A model generated the notes under the pieces. That model saw nothing but the letters and a program-made list of their open reading frames with translations. It did no database searches and was not told the DNA's origin. DNA of 32,000 bases from Xanthomonas campestris pv. campestris str. ATCC 33913 (GTDB taxonomy: Bacteria; Pseudomonadota; Gammaproteobacteria; Xanthomonadales; Xanthomonadaceae), in the NCBI RefSeq assembly GCF_000007145.1, contig NC_003902.1:250325-282324 (forward strand), in the 5' to 3' direction. A program made the position numbers and the translations under genes. Below are positions 14,653-27,935 of the stretch, piece by piece; position 1 is the stretch's first letter, and every line of letters starts with the position of its first letter.

Positions 14653-14907
14653 ATGCCCCGTTCGTTGTTGCGGCAACTGTTGCTGATCTGGATCGTGATC
14701 GTGGCCGCCTGCATCGACGTGGCCAGCATGCTCTATGGGCTGTATCAGCAGACCGAAGGCGTGCGCCTGGACCAGGCACGCCAGCAACTGCAGGCGCAGT
14801 GCGGGCGCATCGTGCAGCGCTACACCGGTGCCAGCGAGGCCGCCCGCGCGGGCGATAACGGCGCGGGGCTGGCCGCGGTGGTGGTGCGCTGGTGGCCGCT
14901 TCGCTGA
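14653..14907 (+). pseudogene. N-terminal fragment (84 codons) of a membrane protein, possibly a sensor-kinase N-terminus
   Basis: One TM helix (LLLIWIVIVAACIDVASMLYGL) and a short periplasmic-like stretch are present. The frame then closes where a different frame opens with MFS-like sequence. Confidence 0.3.
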
Positions 14908-15221
14908 TCGAAGGCTGGGGCGTGTTTCCAGTGCAGATGCTCGATGGCCTGGGCGCCGGCTTGCAGAGCGTGGCGGTCCCCGCATTGGTCGCGCGGCTGC
15001 TGCATGGCACCGGCCGGGTCAACGTGGGCCAGGGCGCGGTGATGACCGTGCAAGGGATCGGTGCTGCATTGAGCCCGGCATTGGGCGGCTGGCTCAGCGC
15101 CGCCTTCGGCTACCGCACCGCGTTTCTGGTGCTGGGCGCTATCGCGCTGCTCGCGGTTGCGCTCTGGGCGAGCTGCCACACGGTGCTCAAACAGGCAGTG
15201 GCTGCCGGCGCGGCGAGGTGA
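14892..15221 (+). pseudogene. C-terminal fragment (~110 aa) of an MFS transporter
   Basis: FPVQMLDGLGAGLQSVAVPALVARL ... GQGAVMTVQGIGAALSPALGGWL ... AFLVLGAIALLAVAL look like the last 3 TM helices of an MFS protein. A stand-alone ~110-aa product is far too short to be a transporter. Confidence 0.5.
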
Positions 15222-15230
15222 TGCGCCTGG

Positions 15231-15707
15231 CTACTGCCCGCCTGTGAAGTTCCATTGTCGCCACGCCTCGAACACCATCACCGCCACGGTGTTGGACAGA
15301 TTGAGGCTGCGATTGTCCGGGCGCATCGGCAGGCGAAGCCGGTGCTGCGGCGGGATGGACTCCAGCACCTCTGCCGGCAGGCCGCGTGTTTCGGGGCCAA
15401 ACAGAAAGGCATCGCCATCGGCAAACTGCGGTGTGTCATAGCGCACGGTGCTGCGGGTACTCAGCGCAAACACGCGCTTGGGTGCGAGCGTGGCCAGCGC
15501 AGTGGGCAGGTCCGGATGCACCTGCAGACGCGCGTATTCGTGATAGTCCAGGCCGGCGCGCTTGAGCTGCTTGTCGCTGAGGTCAAAGCCCAGGGGCTCG
15601 ATCAGGTGCAGGCGCGCGCCGGTATTGGCGCACAAGCGGATCACATTGCCCGTGTTGGGCGGAATTTCGGGTTGGAACAGGATGACATCGAGGACGGGGG
15701 CTGACAT
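15231..15707 (-). CDS. trmL: tRNA (cytidine/uridine-2'-O-)-methyltransferase TrmL (SpoU/TrmH family)
   Basis: DVILFQPEIPPNTGNVIRLCANTGARLHLIEPLGF ... LFGPETRGLP ... LNLSNTVAVMVFEAWRQ is the TrmL/YibK signature. Confidence 0.9.
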   Translation of the reverse strand: MSAPVLDVILFQPEIPPNTGNVIRLCANTGARLHLIEPLGFDLSDKQLKRAGLDYHEYARLQVHPDLPTALATLAPKRVFALSTRSTVRYDTPQFADGDAFLFGPETRGLPAEVLESIPPQHRLRLPMRPDNRSLNLSNTVAVMVFEAWRQWNFTGGQ

Positions 15708-15761
15708 GCGCGCAGTGTAGCTGCGCCGCGCATGGGCCGGCCGGTAATGACCGGCCGGCAG

Positions 15762-16220
15762 TTACTGGCCCAGGGTGGCGCTGACCAGTGCTTCCAGCTC
15801 GACCGGGGTGGGCTGCAGCTGCGGCACCGGCAGGTTGACGATGACCTGGCCGACCAGCGCACCCAGTGCAGCAGCGGCGTGGCCGGTGGCAGCCTGCGCG
15901 GTGGCGGCAGCGGTATGCACCAGCAGGTCGGCGCGCTGTTCGGCGGTCGGACGCACCTGCACGGTGGCCAGGGTCACGATGCGCGGGCCGGCCTGTTCGG
16001 CGGCCAGGGCAGCCAGTTGCTCGGTCGAAGGGCGCACCTGCACTGCGTTCAAGGTGCGGATGCCGCTGCTGCGCTCCAGCGTCTGCTGGGCGATCTGGTC
16101 GACGGCCGGGCGGACCTGCACGGTGTCCAGCGTGGTGAGGGAAGCGGCATGCGCGTTGGCAAAGGAGGCGCCGGCAATCAGGGCGGCGGCGAGGGCGATG
16201 CGCAGGGTCTTGGTGGTCAT
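15762..16220 (-). CDS. Secreted protein with three VQVRP-x2-[DE]Q repeats (152 aa), function unknown
   Basis: A signal peptide (MTTKTLRIALAAALIAGASFANAHA) is followed by TLDTVQVRPAVDQ, TLNAVQVRPSTEQ and TLATVQVRPTAEQ at 26-27-aa spacing, then an Ala-rich tail. Confidence 0.6.
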   Translation of the reverse strand: MTTKTLRIALAAALIAGASFANAHAASLTTLDTVQVRPAVDQIAQQTLERSSGIRTLNAVQVRPSTEQLAALAAEQAGPRIVTLATVQVRPTAEQRADLLVHTAAATAQAATGHAAAALGALVGQVIVNLPVPQLQPTPVELEALVSATLGQ

Positions 16221-16606
16221 GGCGAGGTCTCTTGGTGTGGGTGATCAGTGGTGTGGTAGTAAGGTAGTACACCGTTTCGGTAGCTGCAAGAACTTTCGGT
16301 GCTGTTTTTATTTTGTTCAGCGTGCAGTCATATTTTCTGGCAGCGCACGGGGCGTTGGATGGCTGCGATAACCAGAGCAATCGCCGTGCCATCTTTAAGT
16401 CGTTGTTTTTGAAGGCGGCGGTGCCGCATGGGGCTGTCCGCATCCGGACAACCGGACACCGCCTCGGTCGGGCGGACGCGCCGGACCAAGGCCTGGGCGG
16501 GAGCGCAGCGCACACCGGGGGCCGCCGGTCGCCTCTCGGTAGCGCGCCTTATTGCCAATTCAGGCAGCTACGGCACAATCCGGCTTTGCCCTCAGGTGTC
16601 TGTCTT

Positions 16607-16927
16607 ATGCGCGTGATCCTGCTGTCTGTTCTGGTTGCCGCCACCACCGCGGCCTGCACCTGGGTTCCCATCGAACAGAGCGGCAAAGGCGTGCAGGTCC
16701 TGCCCGCAGGCCCTGTGCCAGCTGGCTGTCAGCAGCAGGGCGAAGTGGTGGTGACGGTCAAGAGCAAGGTCGGTTTCTACAATCGCAACCCGTTGCGGGT
16801 GCAGGAAGAACTGGAAACCCTTGCGCGTAACGAGGCGCCCGGCGCCAATGCCAACACCGTGCAGGCGCAAGGCCAGCCGCTTGATGGCAGCCAGCGTTTC
16901 AACGCGTTCCGGTGCCCGCCGCGCTGA
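16607..16927 (+). CDS. Small lipoprotein (DUF4156-like, 106 aa)
   Basis: A lipobox-like sequence (LLSVLVAATTAAC) starts the protein, and the end of the protein ...GANANTV... is typical of this family. The real start, ATG 16607, lies inside the longer ORF 16313..16927. Confidence 0.6.
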   Translation: MRVILLSVLVAATTAACTWVPIEQSGKGVQVLPAGPVPAGCQQQGEVVVTVKSKVGFYNRNPLRVQEELETLARNEAPGANANTVQAQGQPLDGSQRFNAFRCPPR

Positions 16928-17028
16928 ACCGTTGGGCTGGGGCGAGCGCGGGGCAAATGTAAAGATGCGGTAAAAGCGGCCAGCAGATAGAATGGCGCCC
17001 CCTCGCCTGACGCCATGGCGCTACTTCG

Positions 17029-18045
17029 ATGCTCTTCCAGAATGTCTCCATCGCGGGACTGGCGCATATTGATGCGCCGCACACGCTGACTTCCAAGGAA
17101 ATCAACGAGCGCCTGCAACCGACCTACGACCGTCTTGGGATCAAGACCGACGTATTGGGCGATGTTGCCGGTATCCATGCACGGCGCTTGTGGGACCAGG
17201 ATGTCCAGGCATCGGACGCCGCCACCCAGGCTGCCCGCAAGGCCCTGATCGATGCCAACATCGGCATCGAGAAGATCGGCTTGCTGATCAATACCTCGGT
17301 GAGCCGTGATTACCTGGAGCCGTCCACGGCCTCCATCGTGTCCGGCAACCTGGGTGTCAGCGACCACTGCATGACCTTCGACGTGGCCAACGCCTGTCTT
17401 GCCTTCATCAATGGCATGGACATCGCTGCGCGCATGCTCGAACGCGGCGAGATCGACTACGCCCTGGTCGTGGATGGCGAAACCGCTAATCTTGTTTACG
17501 AAAAAACCCTCGAGCGCATGACCTCGCCGGACGTCACCGAAGAAGAGTTCCGCAACGAACTCGCTGCATTGACGCTGGGCTGCGGTGCGGCCGCGATGGT
17601 GATGGCACGTTCGGAGCTGGTCCCCGACGCGCCGCGCTACAAGGGCGGCGTGACGCGCTCGGCCACCGAGTGGAACAAGCTGTGCCGGGGCAACCTGGAC
17701 CGCATGGTCACCGACACCCGCCTGCTGCTGATCGAAGGCATCAAGCTGGCGCAGAAAACCTTCGTGGCCGCCAAGCAGGTGCTGGGCTGGGCCGTGGAGG
17801 AGCTGGACCAGTTCGTCATCCACCAGGTCAGCCGCCCGCACACTGCGGCGTTCGTGAAGTCCTTCGGCATCGACCCGGCCAAGGTCATGACCATCTTCGG
17901 TGAGCACGGCAACATCGGCCCGGCCTCGGTGCCGATCGTGTTGAGCAAGCTCAAGGAGCTGGGCCGGTTGAAGAAGGGCGATCGCATCGCGCTGCTCGGC
18001 ATCGGTTCGGGCCTGAACTGCTCGATGGCCGAAGTGGTTTGGTGA
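17029..18045 (+). CDS. oleA: OleA: FabH-like thiolase catalysing head-to-head Claisen condensation of acyl-CoAs (olefin pathway)
   Basis: This is a 338-aa KAS-III-like protein with the nucleophile Cys in FDVANACLAF. The same neighbourhood encodes an alpha/beta hydrolase, an AMP-ligase and a 3beta-HSD-type reductase, which together form the oleABCD set known from Xanthomonas and Stenotrophomonas. Confidence 0.85.
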   Translation: MLFQNVSIAGLAHIDAPHTLTSKEINERLQPTYDRLGIKTDVLGDVAGIHARRLWDQDVQASDAATQAARKALIDANIGIEKIGLLINTSVSRDYLEPSTASIVSGNLGVSDHCMTFDVANACLAFINGMDIAARMLERGEIDYALVVDGETANLVYEKTLERMTSPDVTEEEFRNELAALTLGCGAAAMVMARSELVPDAPRYKGGVTRSATEWNKLCRGNLDRMVTDTRLLLIEGIKLAQKTFVAAKQVLGWAVEELDQFVIHQVSRPHTAAFVKSFGIDPAKVMTIFGEHGNIGPASVPIVLSKLKELGRLKKGDRIALLGIGSGLNCSMAEVVW

Positions 18046-18080
18046 TCCGTCGCTGATGACGTGTTAAGAAAATTGGATTT

Positions 18081-18118
18081 TTAGAACACGTTCCATCATC
18101 ATGTTCGTTCTAAGAACA
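18081..18118 (+). promoter_or_regulatory. Operator-like repeats immediately upstream of fic
   Basis: TTAGAAC (18081-18087) and GTTCTAA (18107-18113) form a perfect inverted repeat. AGAACA occurs at 18083 and 18113 with TGTTC (18102-18106) between them. All of this sits in the AT-rich 72-bp leader. Confidence 0.4.
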
Positions 18119-19281
18119 TGAGTGAGGCAGGCATGGAAAGCGTGTCGAAGTTCATCGCTGAGCTCCCCTACAACGATCTCCCGCTGCTTCCACCAGCGGG
18201 AGATATCGAGACGCGGAGCCTGCTCAAGGCTTGCATCAATGCGCGAACTGCGTTGGCGGAGCTAAAACAGGCAACAGCGTTGCTGCCAAATCCTACGGTG
18301 CTGATCAATACAATTCCGATGCTTGAGGCTCAGGCCAGTTCTGAGATCGAGAACATCGTGACGACGACGGACGAACTTTTCCGATACGCCGAAGATCAGG
18401 GCAAGGCACAAAAGCCTGCTACCAAGGAAGCGTTGCGTTACCGCAGTGCGCTCTACGAAGGATTTCAGTCGCTAAAGCAGCGGCCTTTGTGTACAGACAC
18501 CTCAGTTGTCGTCTGCAGCCGTATCAAGGCGGTGCAAATGCAGATCCGTCGCGTGCCCGGAACTGCTCTGGCCAACGACCAAACTCAGCAGATCATCTAC
18601 ACACCGCCGGTTGGCGAAACGCTGCTGCGCGACAAACTGGCCAACTGGGAACGCTTCATCCATGAAAACACCGACATCGATCCATTGATTCGCATGGCTG
18701 TCGCGCACTATCAATTCGAAGCGATCCACCCGTTCACGGATGGCAATGGCCGCACCGGGCGGGTACTGAACTTGCTGATGCTCATCGAGCAGGGCTTGCT
18801 TGATCTGCCAGTGCTCTATCTGTCCCGTTACATCATCCGCAACCGCAGCGACTACTATCGCCTGCTACTGGATGTGACGCGGCATGGGCATTGGGCCGAA
18901 TGGATTCACTACATGCTGGCTGCCGTTGCCGAAACCGCTGCATGGACGACAGCGAAGATCCAGGCGATTCGAGGACTGGAGGCGCAGGCCCGCGACCACA
19001 TTCGTGACCACGCTCCCAAGGCATATAGCCGGGAGTTGGTGGACGTGATTTTCAACCAGCCTTACTGCCGTATTCAGAATGTCGTCGACATGGTGGGGGT
19101 CACGCGCCAGACCGCCGCACGGCATCTCAAAGAGCTTGCGGATATTGGTGTGCTGCACGACCAGCGCCAGGGCAAGGAGAAGCTATTTCTACACCCGGCG
19201 TTTCTGCGCTTGCTGACAAATGACGACAACCAGTTACCCGCCTACCGCGTGCCTGCGCGGAACGTGGAACCGAACACATGA
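18118..19281 (+). CDS. fic: Fic family protein, class II (N-terminal inhibitory helix), with a C-terminal winged-helix DNA-binding domain
   Basis: The Fic active-site motif HPFTDGNGRTGR is at 18727-18762. The inhibitory motif SxxxEN (SSEIEN) is at 18337-18354. A C-terminal HTH-like segment reads VVDMVGVTRQTAARHLKELADIGVL. ATG 18133 is an alternative start, with GAGG 5 nt upstream. Confidence 0.9.
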   Translation: MSEAGMESVSKFIAELPYNDLPLLPPAGDIETRSLLKACINARTALAELKQATALLPNPTVLINTIPMLEAQASSEIENIVTTTDELFRYAEDQGKAQKPATKEALRYRSALYEGFQSLKQRPLCTDTSVVVCSRIKAVQMQIRRVPGTALANDQTQQIIYTPPVGETLLRDKLANWERFIHENTDIDPLIRMAVAHYQFEAIHPFTDGNGRTGRVLNLLMLIEQGLLDLPVLYLSRYIIRNRSDYYRLLLDVTRHGHWAEWIHYMLAAVAETAAWTTAKIQAIRGLEAQARDHIRDHAPKAYSRELVDVIFNQPYCRIQNVVDMVGVTRQTAARHLKELADIGVLHDQRQGKEKLFLHPAFLRLLTNDDNQLPAYRVPARNVEPNT

Positions 19282-20909
19282 CCAACAAATACGATCATCT
19301 CGACCGTCAAACCTTGATCGGTCTACTGCAGCGGCGCGATGCCGAGCGGCAGCTGGGTTTGGTATGGGAGCGCGACGAGATCGAGGCCGACCAGGCACTC
19401 AACGACGATTTTGTCGCGTTGTCATTGGACGCTGGTTTAAGCCATGGTGAGGCACCGTGGGACAACCTGATCATCGAAGGCGACAACTACGACGCGCTGC
19501 GTGCGCTGCGGATGACTCACAAAGGCGCGATCCGCTGCATTTATATCGACCCGCCTTACAACACCGGTAATAAGGACTTCGTCTACAACGACCGTTTCGT
19601 CGACAAGACTCACCGGTTCCGTCATTCGCTGTGGCTGGAGTTCATGTATCGGCGCCTGCAGCTGGCTAAAGAGTTGTTGGCTGATGATGGAGTTATTTTT
19701 GTCAGTATTGATGACAATGAGGTGTTTCGACTTGGAATGTTGATGGACCGTGTATTTGGAGAGAATAATTTTATTGCCAATGTTATTTGGCAAAAAGTCT
19801 TTTCCCCAAAAGGGACAGCACAACATTTCTCTGACGATCACGAGTATGTGATTATTTACGGGCGTGACAAAAATAAATGGCGACCTAACTTGCTTGCAAG
19901 AACGGCTGCTCAAGATCGCGCCTATAAAAATCCTGATGATGATCCCCGCGGCCTTTGGACTTCGGGAGATCTTTCAGCTAGAAATTACTATTCCAAGGGA
20001 GTCTATTCGATTGTCGGCCCAACTGGCCGAGTCATCGCAGGCCCGCCTGCAGGAACGTATTGGCGTTTCTCCGAAGAAAGATTTAAAGAGCTGGATGCGG
20101 ACAATCGTATTTGGTGGGGCAAAAGTGGCGATAATATGCCTCGACTCAAGCGGTTTCTAGCAGATGTCCAGCAAGGCACGGTTCCACAAACACTTTGGAC
20201 TTACGGCGAAGTCGGTCACACGCAAGATGCAAAGAAGCAGCTACTTGAAGTCCTCAATTTTAATTCTACAAATGATGTTTTCTCTACCCCTAAGCCCATC
20301 CAATTGATGGAGCGAATACTAAGCATCGCCAGCAAGCCGGGTGACACTGTCCTTGATTTCTTTGCAGGCTCGGGAACGTTTGCTCAGGCAGTTGCCAAAC
20401 TAAATGCTGAAGATGGCGGCAATCGTAAGTTCATCCTGGTCAGCAGCACCGAAGCCACCGAGGATACGCCTGACAAGAACCTCTGCCGCGATGTTTGCGC
20501 CGAGCGCGTGCGTCGTGTGTTGGGTGGCTACACCAATGCCAAGGGGCAACCGGTTGAGGGCCTGGGTGGCGGCTTCGCCTACTTGCGTACCCGTCGTATT
20601 CCGAAGCATCGGTTGGCGCTCAAGCTGGACCACGCGGAGGTTTGGCATGCGCTGCAGCTATTGCATCAGCGGCCGTTGTCGTTCTGGCCTGGCGGCGGTT
20701 TTGCCAGTGATGGCGAACTGGCCTATCTGGCGGATTTCCAGGCCGCACATGTAGAACAGTTACGTGAGTGGCTGCGGACCCGCACATCGGCAGTCGCTGC
20801 CGTCTATACCTGGTCGACGGAACGGCTGAACGGATTGCTGGGAGAGCCAGCGGCCGACTTGTCTTTGTTGCCCTTGCCGCACCACCTGCGCGAACGCTTC
20901 GGACGTTGA
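19278..20909 (+). CDS. mod: Beta-class N6-adenine/N4-cytosine DNA methyltransferase, Type III Mod-like (543 aa)
   Basis: NLIIEGDNYDALRAL, then IYIDPPYNTG (motif IV, 19548-19559), precede VLDFFAGSGTFAQA (motif I, ~20355-20378). That IV-TRD-I order is the Type III Mod arrangement. The start overlaps the fic stop (ATGA). Confidence 0.88.
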   Translation: MTNKYDHLDRQTLIGLLQRRDAERQLGLVWERDEIEADQALNDDFVALSLDAGLSHGEAPWDNLIIEGDNYDALRALRMTHKGAIRCIYIDPPYNTGNKDFVYNDRFVDKTHRFRHSLWLEFMYRRLQLAKELLADDGVIFVSIDDNEVFRLGMLMDRVFGENNFIANVIWQKVFSPKGTAQHFSDDHEYVIIYGRDKNKWRPNLLARTAAQDRAYKNPDDDPRGLWTSGDLSARNYYSKGVYSIVGPTGRVIAGPPAGTYWRFSEERFKELDADNRIWWGKSGDNMPRLKRFLADVQQGTVPQTLWTYGEVGHTQDAKKQLLEVLNFNSTNDVFSTPKPIQLMERILSIASKPGDTVLDFFAGSGTFAQAVAKLNAEDGGNRKFILVSSTEATEDTPDKNLCRDVCAERVRRVLGGYTNAKGQPVEGLGGGFAYLRTRRIPKHRLALKLDHAEVWHALQLLHQRPLSFWPGGGFASDGELAYLADFQAAHVEQLREWLRTRTSAVAAVYTWSTERLNGLLGEPAADLSLLPLPHHLRERFGR

Positions 20910-20910
20910 T

Positions 20911-23412
20911 ATGCCCATGCCACTGAAAGAGTTCCAAACCGTCATCTGCGACGGGATCGTCGCCCAGTTCGGTGAGGTGCGCGCGCTATACCGACAGATC
21001 GCCGCCGCAGCACCGGAACGCATTGACGAGGCGCGTCGCAAGGACGCTGCCATCGTATTGCAGGCACCGACTGGCGCTGGCAAGACGCGCATGGCGATCG
21101 AGGTGATGCGCCGCGTGTCGATCGAGGAACGGGTGTTGTGGTTCTGGTTCGCGCCCTTCACCGGGCTGGTCGAGCAATCGCGCAAGGTCTTGAGCAATCA
21201 AGCGCCAGAGCTGGCGCTGCTGGATCTGGATGCGGACCGGCAGCTGGACGCCGTGCGCGGCGGCGGCGTGTTCGTGGTCACCTGGGCGTCGTTGGCGGCA
21301 CGCAAGGCCGAGAGCCGGCGCGCGCGCCAGCGCGGCGATGCCGGCATGGCAATCGATGACGTGATCGCAATGGCGCGCGAGCAAGGCCTGCGTATCGGCT
21401 GCGTAGTGGACGAGGCGCATCACGGATTTCAGCGTGAGACTCTGGCACGGGCGTTCTTCTGCGATGTGCTGAAGCCCGATTACGCACTCCTGATGACCGC
21501 CACGCCACGCGACGCTGACATGAAGGCCTTCGAACGCACGACTGGCTATTCCGTCGGAGAGCCTGCGGAATGGGCTTCGGTCAGCCGTGCCGACGCAGTC
21601 GATGCGGGCCTGCTCAAGCGCGGCGTGCGGATGGTGCGTTTTATCGCCCGCGATGGCGATACCGCGCAGTTGGTGGATTTCGAACATCTCGCATTGCGCG
21701 AGTGCACACAGATGCATCGGACCATTCGCAAGAACTTGGCAGATGCGGATATCGCACTGACGCCATTGATGCTGGTGCAGGTGCCGGATGGCAAGGTTGC
21801 GCAGGAGGCGGCACGGACGTATCTGGTGGAGCAGCTGGGATTCGATGCGACCGCCGTTCGTGTACATACCGCTGCCGAACCTGATCCGGATCTACTGTCG
21901 TTGGCGCAGGATCCAACGGTGGAAGTGCTGATCTTCAAGATGGCCGTGGCGCTGGGGTTCGATGCGCCACGTGCATTCACCCTGGCAGCATTGCGCGGCG
22001 CGCGCGACCCGAGCTTCGGGGTGCAAGTGATCGGCCGCATCATGCGCCGCCACGCCCTTCTACAGGCGCAGGCGGTTGTACCGCCTGTTCTGGATCACGG
22101 ATATGTATTTCTTGCTAATTCTGAGTCACAAGAAGGTTTGCTGCTAGCCGGCGCCCAGATCAACACACTCACCACGCAAGCACCCGAGCTGGGGACGCAG
22201 ACGGTTGTCACCATGATCGGCGATGGTGCCTCGCTGCAGGTCGTGCGCAGCGGAGAGCCTCTGAGCCTGCTGGTATCGCGCGCAGGGGTGCACGTGTTGG
22301 ACGCCGAAGCAGAGAGAGATGCTGTCTCCTCGGCGGGCACTACGAGTGATGTGGCTGATGCGCTGGTGGGGACCCCGTTCGCTGGGATGGCGAATGCGAC
22401 CCAAGCCGCGCTGGAAATGTTCGGGGGCGAGGGTGCTTGGCCTGCTCGGGCCACAAGTGTCGCTGGTGCATTTGTGTTGGCTCAAGAGAGCATGTATCGG
22501 TATCCGCGTCGTCCCGATGCTCCGGATCGCTTGCGTGGAGAACAGTTACCGCCGGTGTCAGCTGATTTCGAGGCAGGCCTGGCTGCGCATGTCGATTTCT
22601 CACCAGAAGTGCTGGCCGATCGCCTACGTGGCAAGGTGCAGGTCCAGCGCTTGGACACAGACCTGTTTGCTGGTCATCGGGTCACAGAAGATGGAAGCGA
22701 CCTTTGGGCCAATCTTTCGCCGGAAGCTGTCGCCGAAAAAGCCGAACAGATCCGATTGCGGCTCGTAGAAGCCAACGACCGCGAGCTATACCGCAGACTA
22801 TTGGAGCGTTTCGTTCGTGCGATCGAAGCGTCAGGCGCAGAAGTGCCTGAAGACGAAGAGCTGCAAATGCGCCAGTTGGACCTCTTGCTGGTTAGACGCC
22901 CTCGGCTGCTGCGAGAGGCATTCAAAAGCCTGCGTCAGGGCCAAGTGCTCGATGTCGATGTGCTACTACCGGCCGAGTTGTTCAGCGATCAACCGCTGCG
23001 CTCAGCCAATCGCGGGCTTTATGGCGTCTTTCCAGCTGGTTTGAACCAGGATGAGCTAGCCATTGCGGAGCGCCTGGATGCGAGTGCCCAAGTGCGCTGG
23101 TGGCATCGCAATCAACCCAAATCAGGCATCGGTCTCTATCGCTGGGATGAGGGAGACGGCTTCTACCCTGATTTCGTGGTGTCTGTCGCAGAACGTTCCG
23201 CTCCAGGTATTGCGCTGCTGGAGTTGAAGGGCGAGCACTTGTGGGGCAAGCCCAGTGAAGTGGACAAGAGTGCGGCAATCCATCCCGATTACGGTGCTGT
23301 TTTCACGGTCGGCCGTAAGCGCGGCGAGCGTGATTTCTTCTATCTACGCGAGTTGGGTGGACGCCTACAACGCGCGGGTTCCTTTGATTTGGATCGGATG
23401 CGATTTACATGA
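20911..23412 (+). CDS. res: SF2 DEAH helicase with a C-terminal PD-(D/E)xK nuclease, Type III restriction Res-like (833 aa)
   Basis: Helicase motifs: LQAPTGAGKT (motif I, ~21064-21087), VVDEAHH (motif II), LLMTATP (motif III) and QVIGRIMRR (motif VI). The C-terminal nuclease motif is YPDFVV...LLELKG (23167-23229). The gene starts 1 nt after the mod stop, and its stop overlaps the oleB ATG. Confidence 0.85.
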   Translation: MPMPLKEFQTVICDGIVAQFGEVRALYRQIAAAAPERIDEARRKDAAIVLQAPTGAGKTRMAIEVMRRVSIEERVLWFWFAPFTGLVEQSRKVLSNQAPELALLDLDADRQLDAVRGGGVFVVTWASLAARKAESRRARQRGDAGMAIDDVIAMAREQGLRIGCVVDEAHHGFQRETLARAFFCDVLKPDYALLMTATPRDADMKAFERTTGYSVGEPAEWASVSRADAVDAGLLKRGVRMVRFIARDGDTAQLVDFEHLALRECTQMHRTIRKNLADADIALTPLMLVQVPDGKVAQEAARTYLVEQLGFDATAVRVHTAAEPDPDLLSLAQDPTVEVLIFKMAVALGFDAPRAFTLAALRGARDPSFGVQVIGRIMRRHALLQAQAVVPPVLDHGYVFLANSESQEGLLLAGAQINTLTTQAPELGTQTVVTMIGDGASLQVVRSGEPLSLLVSRAGVHVLDAEAERDAVSSAGTTSDVADALVGTPFAGMANATQAALEMFGGEGAWPARATSVAGAFVLAQESMYRYPRRPDAPDRLRGEQLPPVSADFEAGLAAHVDFSPEVLADRLRGKVQVQRLDTDLFAGHRVTEDGSDLWANLSPEAVAEKAEQIRLRLVEANDRELYRRLLERFVRAIEASGAEVPEDEELQMRQLDLLLVRRPRLLREAFKSLRQGQVLDVDVLLPAELFSDQPLRSANRGLYGVFPAGLNQDELAIAERLDASAQVRWWHRNQPKSGIGLYRWDEGDGFYPDFVVSVAERSAPGIALLELKGEHLWGKPSEVDKSAAIHPDYGAVFTVGRKRGERDFFYLRELGGRLQRAGSFDLDRMRFT

Positions 23413-24311
23413 CCTACCCCGGCTATTCCTTCACCCCCAAGCGCCTGGATGTGCGCCCCGGCATTGCGATGTCGTATCTGGACGAAGGTCCGAGCGATGG
23501 CGAGGTGGTGGTCATGCTGCACGGCAATCCGTCGTGGGGCTATCTGTGGCGGCATCTGGTGAGCGGTCTGTCTGATCGCTACCGCTGCATCGTGCCCGAC
23601 CACATCGGCATGGGCCTGTCCGACAAGCCCGACGACGCGCCCGATGCGCAGCCGCGTTACGACTACACGTTGCAATCGCGCGTGGACGATCTGGACCGCC
23701 TGCTGCAGCACCTGGGCATCACCGGGCCGATCACGCTGGCGGTGCACGATTGGGGCGGCATGATCGGTTTTGGCTGGGCGCTTTCGCACCACGCGCAGGT
23801 CAAGCGCCTGGTGATCACCAACACCGCCGCATTCCCGCTACCGCCGGAAAAGCCGATGCCATGGCAGATCGCGATGGGCCGGCATTGGCGGTTGGGCGAG
23901 TGGTTCATCCGCACCTTCAATGCGTTCTCCTCCGGCGCCTCGTGGCTGGGCGTGTCGCGGCGGATGCCGGCGGCTGTGCGCCGTGCCTATGTCGCCCCGT
24001 ACGACAACTGGAAGAACCGCATTTCCACGATCCGCTTCATGCAGGACATCCCGCTGTCGCCGGCCGATCAGGCCTGGTCGCTGCTGGAGCGCTCGGCGCA
24101 AGCGTTGCCGTCGTTTGCCGACCGCCCGGCCTTCATCGCCTGGGGCCTGCGCGACATCTGTTTCGACAAGCACTTTCTGGCCGGTTTCCGCCGCGCGCTG
24201 CCGCAGGCCGAGGTGATGGCGTTCGACGATGCCAACCACTACGTGCTCGAAGACAAGCACGAGGTGCTGGTGCCGGCAATCCGCGCGTTCCTGGAGCGCA
24301 ACCCGCTGTAG
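23409..24311 (+). CDS. oleB: OleB: alpha/beta-hydrolase (haloalkane-dehalogenase-like) beta-lactone decarboxylase
   Basis: MLHGNPSWGYLWR and the Asp nucleophile elbow AVHDWGG are present, with a C-terminal ANHYVLEDK. It lies within the ole cluster. Confidence 0.85.
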   Translation: MTYPGYSFTPKRLDVRPGIAMSYLDEGPSDGEVVVMLHGNPSWGYLWRHLVSGLSDRYRCIVPDHIGMGLSDKPDDAPDAQPRYDYTLQSRVDDLDRLLQHLGITGPITLAVHDWGGMIGFGWALSHHAQVKRLVITNTAAFPLPPEKPMPWQIAMGRHWRLGEWFIRTFNAFSSGASWLGVSRRMPAAVRRAYVAPYDNWKNRISTIRFMQDIPLSPADQAWSLLERSAQALPSFADRPAFIAWGLRDICFDKHFLAGFRRALPQAEVMAFDDANHYVLEDKHEVLVPAIRAFLERNPL

Positions 24312-26828: not shown

Positions 26829-26924
26829 GTGCAGGCAGCAGGGCGATGCTGTCAGGCGCAGGCGTATCGCCAGCGCAAGTGTCTGCCGCTGTCGTGTGTT
26901 TCCTTCTGCAATCGGTGTGATGTG

Positions 26925-27935
26925 ATGAAGATTCTGGTAACGGGTGGTGGCGGCTTTCTCGGGCAGGCGCTGTGCCGTGGATTGGTGGCGCGTGGACACG
27001 AGGTGGTGAGCTTTCAGCGTGGTGACTATCCGGTGCTGCACACCTTGGGTGTGGGCCAGATCCGTGGCGATCTGGCTGACCCGCAGGCGGTGCGGCATGC
27101 GCTTGCCGGCATCGATGCGGTGTTCCACAACGCGGCCAAGGCCGGGGCGTGGGGCAGCTACGACAGCTATCACCAGGCCAACGTGGTGGGCACGCAGAAC
27201 GTGCTCGATGCATGCCGTGCCAATGGCGTACCGCGCTTGATCTACACCTCCACGCCCAGCGTGACCCATCGCGCCACCAATCCGGTGGAAGGCTTGGGCG
27301 CGGACGAAGTGCCGTATGGCGAAGACCTGCGCGCGCCGTATGCGGCGACCAAGGCAATTGCCGAACGCGCGGTGCTGGCAGCCAACGATGCACAGCTGGC
27401 CACCGTTGCGTTGCGCCCGCGCTTGATCTGGGGGCCGGGCGACAACCACCTGCTGCCGCGTCTGGCGGCACGTGCGCGCGCCGGGCGGCTGCGGATGGTG
27501 GGCGATGGCAGCAACCTGGTGGACAGCACCTACATCGACAATGCGGCGCAGGCGCACTTCGATGCGTTCGCGCATCTGGCGCCGGGCGCTGCGTGCGCAG
27601 GCAAGGCGTACTTCATCTCCAACGGCGAACCGTTGCCGATGCGCGAGCTACTCAACCGTTTGCTGGCGGCGGTGGATGCACCAGCGGTGACGCGCTCGCT
27701 GTCGTTCAAGACGGCGTACCGCATCGGTGCGGTGTGCGAAACATTGTGGCCACTGTTGCGTCTGCCAGGCGAAGTGCCGCTGACGCGGTTTCTGGTCGAG
27801 CAGCTATGCACGCCGCATTGGTACAGCATGGAACCGGCGCGGCGTGACTTTGGCTATGTGCCGCAGATCAGCATCGAAGAGGGCCTGCAACGGCTGCGAT
27901 CCTCATCTTCCCGCGACATCTCCATCACTCGATAA
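26925..27935 (+). CDS. oleD: OleD: NAD(P)H-dependent 2-alkyl-3-ketoalkanoate reductase (3beta-HSD/extended SDR family)
   Basis: [16 protein letters not shown] Rossmann motif, the catalytic YAATK, and the position after oleC. Confidence 0.85.

Follow-up and report, generated by a model that had tools for sequence, protein, structure and literature searches.

The locus considered here raises the question of whether a gene of the Fic family, whose end overlaps the start of a restriction-modification (R-M) gene pair, forms a single machine with that pair or belongs to a separate defence system that shares its operon. The locus lies in a 32,000-nucleotide stretch of the Xanthomonas campestris pv. 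campestris (Xcc) ATCC 33913 genome (contig NC_003902.1, positions 250,325–282,324), hereafter called the window, where three genes, fic, mod and res, are placed between oleA and oleB. A preliminary description of this DNA had seen in them a composite three-component module beyond the known systems. Our results point to a different arrangement. The cassette probably consists of two autonomous defence systems, each of a known kind, which stand one behind the other in a compact operon and occupy a cargo slot whose borders are oleA and oleB. This reading draws on the identities of the genes, the separability of the two modules, the hotspot behaviour of the junction and the conservation of operator-like repeats upstream of fic. 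An obligate three-gene system is disfavoured because each module occurs without the other at the same address. The main elements are the following:

oleA: 17029–18045, forward strand; OleA thiolase / 3-oxoacyl-ACP synthase III-like protein (NCBIfam PRK09258, 2e-143), left border of the slot
variable segment (the cassette): 18046–23392, forward strand; delimited by blastn of the window against X. campestris loci L086/L087
fic: 18118–19281, forward strand; open reading frame (ORF) of 387 amino acids, predicted SoFic orthologue
mod: 19278–20909, forward strand; 543 amino acids, predicted Type III-type N6-adenine DNA methyltransferase of the beta class
res: 20911–23412, forward strand; 833 amino acids, helicase of superfamily 2 (SF2, DEAH type) whose C-terminal part bears a putative nuclease motif of the PD-(D/E)xK type
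oleB: 23409–24311, forward strand; alpha/beta hydrolase, right border of the slot

The three same-strand genes follow one another almost without spacing, and both junctions are as first described: the fic TGA and the mod ATG share the tetranucleotide ATGA (19278–19281), and one nucleotide lies between the mod TGA (20907–20909) and the res ATG. One further overlap had escaped the preliminary description. The res stop and the oleB ATG share ATGA at 23409–23412, in the window as well as in at least 14 related loci, Xylella included (among them L002, L005–L012, L014, L018 and L056), and the biosynthetic gene oleB appears to be translationally coupled to a restriction gene. The position of the cassette directly behind oleA was likewise not mentioned there: a spacer of 73 nucleotides separates the oleA stop from the nominal start of the fic ORF; oleC and oleD follow further downstream of oleB. 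The composition of the cassette is unlike that of its flanks: GC drops to 0.49–0.58 across it, and the GC content of third codon positions is 0.57–0.68 versus 0.76–0.87 in the ole genes. The products correspond to AAM39532–34 of Xcc ATCC 33913, are identical in strain 8004 (AAY47310–12) and carry in these genomes the annotations Fic family protein, site-specific DNA-methyltransferase and DEAD/DEAH helicase.

Identity of the three gene products

Judged by its domains and motifs, the first gene encodes an orthologue of SoFic (the SO_4266 family of Shewanella oneidensis), a class II Fic AMPylase whose C-terminal domain is of the winged helix-turn-helix (wHTH) type. The supposition that the proteins fall outside characterised systems does not hold for this gene, which matches the single-gene SoFic system in PADLOC (5e-123), the NCBIfam equivalog NF046030 (615 bits, cutoff 550) and the solved SoFic chains in the PDB (1e-142 to 1e-144, about 65% identity over the whole length). 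The auto-inhibited class II Fic with a winged helix that had been proposed is well borne out: the Pfam domains Fic_N (PF13784, 4e-27), Fic (PF02661, 3e-15) and SoFic-like_C (PF21248, 6e-31) reproduce the architecture of SoFic, and the catalytic motif HPFTDGNGRTGR (amino acids 204–215, with H204) and the inhibitory motif SSEIEN (amino acids 74–79, with E78) are the same HPFxDGNGRxGR and SxxxEN motifs as in SoFic. Both are kept in all orthologues examined, and every motif originally quoted for Fic, Mod and Res, H204 and E78 included, is present at the residues implied. The likelier start of fic is the ATG at 18133, which has GAGG just before it and gives a protein of 382 amino acids.

SoFic has been described as a standalone, single-gene anti-phage protein (bioRxiv 10.1101/2022.05.11.491447; PMC12249575) that acts as an abortive-infection toxin (PMC12249575); it AMPylates EF-Tu within switch I, and its dimer binds its own promoter less than 100 bp from the start codon (bioRxiv 10.64898/2026.07.09.737422). 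Both kinds of system in the cassette were already known, and the initial guesses about Fic, including that of an AMPylating effector of the abortive-infection type, agree with what has been published on the SoFic family. SoFic is listed by DefenseFinder and PADLOC as a single-gene defence system; a defence role of the window gene is suggested by its sequence. Two features set the window gene apart from SoFic as known. At its end the stop codon is shared in part with the ATG of a Type III-like mod, and it heads a longer operon; moreover, unlike the SoFic genes of PMC12249575, it has no small AS1-like antitoxin ORF on its 3' side; such an ORF is ruled out in the window, as mod begins within the fic stop codon.

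The mod-then-res order with near-zero spacing is that of the Type III R-M systems EcoP15I and EcoP1I, and the assignment of the pair as Type III-like has held up (PADLOC MTase_III, 4e-119, for Mod; Pfam ResIII, 6e-11, for Res). In Mod, DPPY (amino acids 91–94) precedes FAGSG (amino acids 362–366), with the target-recognition domain (TRD) between them. The protein also matches Pfam N6_N4_Mtase (2e-41) and, in the PDB, the Mod of 6k0w (1e-64) and the EcoP15I Mod structure (4zcf_A, 8.5e-39). As in Type III R-M systems, it would be a beta-class methyltransferase forming N6-methyladenine, with a swappable central TRD:

TRD of Mod: 19725–20327, forward strand; amino acids ~150–350, a low-GC, horizontally shuffled block

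The identity of the TRD to homologues is 20–30%, versus 80–98% in the flanking parts of Mod; its GC content is 38–52%, and its alleles form a mosaic that does not track phylogeny. Such a pattern is typical of specificity shuffling in R-M systems. TRD alleles are shared by distant lineages (for example, at 78–90% identity with Lysobacter sp. M15) and differ among the pathovars of X. translucens (22–44% versus 62–78%). A search of mod for simple repeats of the phase-variable kind gave none. A search for literature on the Xcc locus tags, or for a Xanthomonas methylome assigning this Mod, returned nothing usable.

Res combines the motifs TGAGKT (54–59), DEAH (167–170), TATP (196–199) and QVIGRIMR (372–379) with PDF (753–755) and ELK (771–773), a layout like that of Type III Res subunits, in which an SF2 motor of the DEAH type is joined to a putative PD-(D/E)xK motif near the C-terminus:

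PD...ELK putative nuclease catalytic motif of Res: 23167–23229, forward strand; P753-D754 ... E771-L772-K773, invariant in the alignment

The helicase motifs together with E715, P753-D754, E771 and K773 are invariant across 78 Res homologues (down to 43% identity). The AlphaFold2 (AF2) model built from the deeper alignment has a mean predicted local distance difference test score (pLDDT) of 77, versus 59 from a shallow alignment, and contains an alpha-beta-beta-beta-alpha-beta core at 713–815 (pLDDT 85–96); E715, P753-D754 and E771-x-K773 sit on this confidently predicted unit. In PADLOC the sole REase_III model matched, weakly, was PDLC03653 (4.5e-16, amino acids 295–407). Amino acids 661–833 have no Pfam match even at E<=10, neither the single sequence nor a profile finds any relevant PDB entry at E<=1, and a Foldseek search of both AF2 models against the PDB gives, among its top hits, generic SF2 helicases only. 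Since the similarity to the curated Type III models is weak, a Type III mechanism is read from the architecture of Res, which represents a divergent subfamily, and we term the mod-res pair Type III-like for the same reason.

Separate occurrence of fic and mod-res

A scan centred on Res, with a Res alignment as the query and one genome per species, yielded 80 loci at 37–96% identity. In 70 of these mod stands directly 5' of res, the remainder lying at contig ends, and 61 loci have enough upstream sequence to be informative about what precedes mod. Fic does so in 17 of the 61, every one of which is bordered by oleA and oleB and belongs to a Xanthomonadales genus (Xanthomonas, Pseudoxanthomonas, Luteimonas, Cognatiluteimonas and related metagenome-assembled genomes). 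Outside the ole cluster, mod-res goes without Fic in every informative locus (44/44), in other Proteobacteria, Verrucomicrobia, Acidobacteria and Desulfobacterota. These counts speak against the composite three-component module that had been proposed. Xylella fastidiosa carries mod-res without fic at the very same site (oleA-mod-res-oleB), and no remnant of fic is detectable in its 665-bp oleA-mod spacer.

The converse state also occurs. An oleA-fic-oleB arrangement without mod-res is found in X. oryzae (fic 84% identity), X. arboricola (86%) and other X. campestris (71%), and these orthologues keep the catalytic and inhibitory motifs; the expected synteny of Fic orthologues with mod/res is therefore not general. 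Behind another SoFic orthologue lies an EcoRII-Vsr-Dcm system, encoded on the opposite strand, and one orthologue stands alone among housekeeping genes. Because intact orthologues lack mod-res at the same locus and one has only housekeeping neighbours, the comparative evidence suggests that SoFic is self-sufficient without neighbouring genes.

No recurrent third partner upstream of mod-res emerged outside Xanthomonadales from the 61 informative loci; the genes found there are sporadic (HipA kinases, an SLFN/AlbA_2-HATPase protein, an integrase and unknown proteins). In other lineages the product of the gene directly 5' of mod, which often overlaps mod by 4 nucleotides (L043:5966–7822, L060:6699–8258, L018:6461–8380, L038:6207–7739, L042:6841–8352), is of three kinds: a HipA kinase, an SLFN/AlbA_2-HATPase_c_4 protein that also has a Fic-like_C wHTH, or a protein of 503–510 amino acids that has no Pfam or PADLOC match.

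A toxin-type gene translationally coupled to an R-M operon recalls PrrC-EcoprrI, in which the gene of an anticodon nuclease is embedded in a Type Ic R-M operon; the R-M proteins hold PrrC latent until an anti-restriction peptide of a phage sets it off. The likeness lies in a suicidal effector gene placed inside an R-M operon as layered defence, and it is extended by the other toxin-like genes (HipA, SLFN/AlbA_2) that occupy the same position before mod elsewhere. By this analogy Mod-Res would restrain Fic, or be watched by it, and Fic would fire when a phage anti-restriction protein disables restriction. We regard such a guard relationship as very unlikely, because fic persists after mod-res has been lost: in several species and strains mod-res was deleted and fic stayed intact, a state that, on comparative grounds, would be hard to tolerate if Mod-Res held Fic in check. 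In contrast to PrrC, the window-type Fic has an inhibitory helix of its own (SSEIEN), so that its dependence on the R-M proteins is unsupported; moreover, SoFic reportedly gives defence without any partner gene and, as noted above, can stand among housekeeping genes.

With the two-system reading, the locus would provide independent layers of defence, restriction acting first and SoFic serving as a back-up, rather than one machine. Mod would methylate adenine within a short asymmetric site set by the swappable TRD, and the Mod-Res complex would cut unmodified incoming DNA by means of its DEAH motor and PD-ExK nuclease. SoFic, by analogy with its characterised relatives, would be a dimeric AMPylase auto-inhibited by its N-terminal part; once unleashed, it would AMPylate EF-Tu and halt translation in a defence of the abortive-infection type.

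SoFic and Type III R-M genes also meet in another setting. An AlpA-type element seen on metagenome contigs (L096–L099) carries in a row a DrmD-like SNF2 helicase, a 36-amino-acid ORF, SoFic (69% identity), AbiD, a Type III methyltransferase of 1097 amino acids and a Type III restriction endonuclease, the R-M pair being from subfamilies other than those of the window. This mobile island, unrelated to the locus of the window, is a second, independent co-location of SoFic with Type III R-M.

Cargo at the oleA/oleB junction

The limits of the cassette follow from the comparison with the X. campestris loci L086–L088, in which the flanks of the window are matched at 98.7% (14886–18045) and 97.9% (23393–24303) nucleotide identity. 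OleA is 100% identical in amino acid sequence, and the nucleotide similarity ends exactly at its stop, 18045. The interior of these loci measures 1.4 kb; it has a fic allele of 71% identity and lacks mod-res, and a match of ~70% at the nucleotide level extends over fic only. Because the flanks are near-identical and the interior is replaced, the variable segment can be placed at 18046–23392, which nearly coincides with the extent given in the preliminary description.

An unbiased metagenome scan centred on OleA gave 66 informative loci (within L100–L179), in which the junction was found in the following states:

oleA and oleB adjacent, 63–145 nucleotides apart: 47 of 66
Fic without mod-res: 9 of 66
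Fic and Mod: 1 of 66
unrelated inserts: 8 of 66
no oleB within reach: 1 of 66

The unrelated inserts include UPF0149/SEC-C, HTH+HATPase+DUF4325 and unknown proteins, and other cargo found 3' of fic in the slot comprises EcoRII-Vsr-Dcm and a Type ISP/IIG-like enzyme. Three of the fic-only loci (L115, 10131–10433; L116, 10131–10433; L120, 10213–10419) retain a degenerate 3' stub of res, 45–50 codons long, that ends on the oleB ATGA. The corresponding C-terminal peptide is native to the Res family at non-ole loci. Since the stub remains and this C-terminus is native outside ole, mod and most of res were deleted in these loci while fic was kept. A further stage of decay is represented by L100 (9017–9466), where the fic operator and ~110 fic codons run directly into the tail of res, to which they are fused. 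Local alignment against shuffled sequences gave no significant res or mod remnant beyond ~20 nucleotides in the spacers between fic and oleB of L085, L087 and L089.

On this sequence evidence the oleA/oleB junction is a defence-cargo slot in Xanthomonadales. Like other defence islands and hotspots, it has fixed core-gene borders (oleA and oleB) and a content that varies among strains of one species, and several systems lie side by side, counting HEC-01 just past oleB in a sister strain. Unlike the usual islands, it is situated inside a biosynthetic operon, its cargo is fused to that operon by overlapping start and stop codons, and one type of cargo, fic-mod-res, has lasted across several genera. 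No sign of site-specific mobility was found: the search revealed no tRNA, Rfam family, tandem repeat, meaningful flanking direct repeat or integrase, nor was a near-identical plasmid copy of the cassette found. The turnover of the slot probably proceeds by homologous recombination through the ole flanks. The slot is well delimited, and its decay series from fic-mod-res through fic with a res stub and a fic stub to the empty state makes it a useful place to follow how defence genes are acquired and lost within an operon.

The recurrence of fic between oleA and oleB within Xanthomonadales, the location of its operator in the oleA-fic spacer and the coupling of oleB to res might suggest that the Fic/wHTH protein mainly regulates the ole (olefin biosynthesis) operon, with the R-M genes as passengers. 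This idea seems to us extremely improbable, as oleA and oleB are adjacent, with nothing between them, in the 47 OleA-centred loci listed above; SoFic orthologues also occur far from ole genes, and the slot accepts unrelated cargo too.

Variation continues downstream of the slot. In X. campestris CP155923.1 (L087:9242–10983) the candidate defence system HEC-01 (HEC-01A, 9e-146; HEC-01B, 1.5e-57) lies between oleB and a CxxCxxCC gene, and the window has nothing at the HEC-01 site of its sister strains. Since HEC-01 is present there and absent here, the site beyond oleB may be regarded as a defence slot too. The window and L086–L088 diverge anew from 26820, just past oleC; the window has oleD (26829–27935) there, and L086–L088 have a Trans_reg_C/TPR gene of equal length in its place.

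Upstream repeats and control of the operon

The spacer between oleA and fic contains two inverted repeats, both detected by a repeat search and both within 75 nucleotides upstream of fic:

inverted repeat 1 (ACGTGTTAAGAAAAT / ATTTTTAGAACACGT): 18059–18091, no strand assigned; candidate SoFic operator/promoter element
inverted repeat 2 (TCATGTTC-N7-GAACATGA): 18099–18121, no strand assigned; arms 100% complementary, candidate SoFic operator

Repeat 2 lies just 5' of the GAGG ribosome-binding site and the ATG at 18133. All related loci, the fic-only ones included, have paired palindromes 5' of fic (equivalents in L001–L089), and the half-sites of these palindromes co-vary across lineages with the recognition helix of the wHTH domain, which gives three operator/helix types:

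recognition helix TRQTAARHLKEL: half-site CATGTTC/GAACATG
recognition helix AKRETAARYLREL: half-site CATGTCGA/TCGACATG
recognition helix SR(L/I)TAT(K/R)YL: half-site of the ACATG(T/C)ATA type

The closest regulatory precedent besides SoFic itself is CccR of Yersinia pseudotuberculosis, a class II Fic protein with a C-terminal HTH, the dimer of which acts on an inverted repeat close to the -35/-10 boxes and so represses the promoter of its own gene; CccR is also an effector secreted by the type VI secretion system, with FtsZ as its target (PMC9755527). It is a distant sequence relative of the window Fic, and its operator, AGATAATCAT-N26-ATGATAATCT, is unrelated to the window repeats in both sequence and spacing; the paired inverted repeats upstream of fic nevertheless fit the CccR model of autorepression. 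As with the promoter site bound by SoFic, the palindromes of the window lie less than 100 bp upstream of the start. Their co-variation with the recognition helix is consistent both with the binding of SoFic to its own promoter and with the palindrome-dependent autorepression by CccR, and they offer a concrete candidate site for the reported promoter binding. As RNA, the region also folds into a pair of hairpins (z = -3.3), and the repeats could act in that form instead.

Since SoFic and CccR bind palindromes in their own promoters and such palindromes are present here, it is plausible that the wHTH domain regulates transcription, as the preliminary description suggested. No convincing promoter or terminator was found between fic, mod and res. 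For this reason, and because the repeats fit SoFic promoter binding, a single fic-mod-res(-oleB) transcript from a SoFic-controlled promoter appears to be the likeliest arrangement. In this scheme the SoFic wHTH would bind the palindromes of its own promoter, the three genes and probably oleB would be co-transcribed, and SoFic autoregulation would thereby also set the levels of mod-res, a control that is plausible by analogy with SoFic and CccR.

Several observations weigh against the reading of the cassette as two autonomous systems of known kinds. The fic/mod ATGA overlap is kept in 11 of the 18 Fic-containing loci, from several genera, and two more overlap by 7 nucleotides. The divergence of Fic from the window protein closely follows that of Res (Spearman 0.90, versus 0.54–0.59 with OleA). 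A conserved overlap and co-divergence would also be expected under functional integration in this lineage; co-divergence would likewise be expected of linked genes exchanged as a block. In five ole-embedded loci (L022, L026, L036, L055, L056) the Fic before mod is 31–44% identical to that of the window and falls below the SoFic equivalog cutoff, while Res is 63–68% identical. Either these proteins diverged fast in situ or a paralogue took over the position of the original gene, and a divergent SoFic-like Fic that still abuts mod could indicate selection for a Fic there. Finally, Res, a protein of 833 amino acids, is weakly similar to the curated Type III Res models, and no similarity of its sequence to EcoP15I Res is detectable; EcoP15I is also outside the top 50 matches by fold.

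The first of these points bear on a lineage-specific integration in which SoFic acts as a controller resembling a C protein: the wHTH domain would repress the single fic-mod-res promoter, and the expression of mod and res, as well as their safe establishment, would depend on Fic. The stop/start overlaps kept across genera, the lack of a recognisable promoter between fic and mod, the operator-like palindromes that co-vary with the wHTH, the published promoter binding or autorepression by SoFic and CccR and the Fic-Res co-divergence (rho 0.90) are all in its favour. The same operator and promoter, however, are found where fic stands alone, which marks them as the control region of fic itself, and mod-res does without Fic in the 44 other contexts and in Xylella at the same site. 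We therefore consider a dependence of this kind rather unlikely; regulation of mod-res would be a by-product of operon fusion and not the defining feature of the locus.

A related proposal is that the SoFic promoter/operator has been captured as the sole control point of fic-mod-res(-oleB), the AMPylase doubling as a regulator and the coupling being maintained by selection. The conservation of the overlaps and the persistence of Fic before mod even at 31–44% identity favour such a capture, which we hold to be unlikely as a whole. If true, it would tie the level of restriction and the capacity for abortive infection to one autoregulatory circuit. As for the stacked arrangement of two autonomous systems, it carries a more general caution: close packing and translational coupling are not enough, on their own, to make a set of defence genes a new multi-gene system. 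The locus is present in two genetically tractable reference strains, Xcc ATCC 33913 and 8004.

Outside the cassette, upstream of oleA, an ORF of 152 amino acids on the reverse strand (15762–16220) contains three copies of the motif T(L/A)(D/N/A)(T/A)VQVRP(A/S/T) and is kept in Xanthomonas neighbourhoods.

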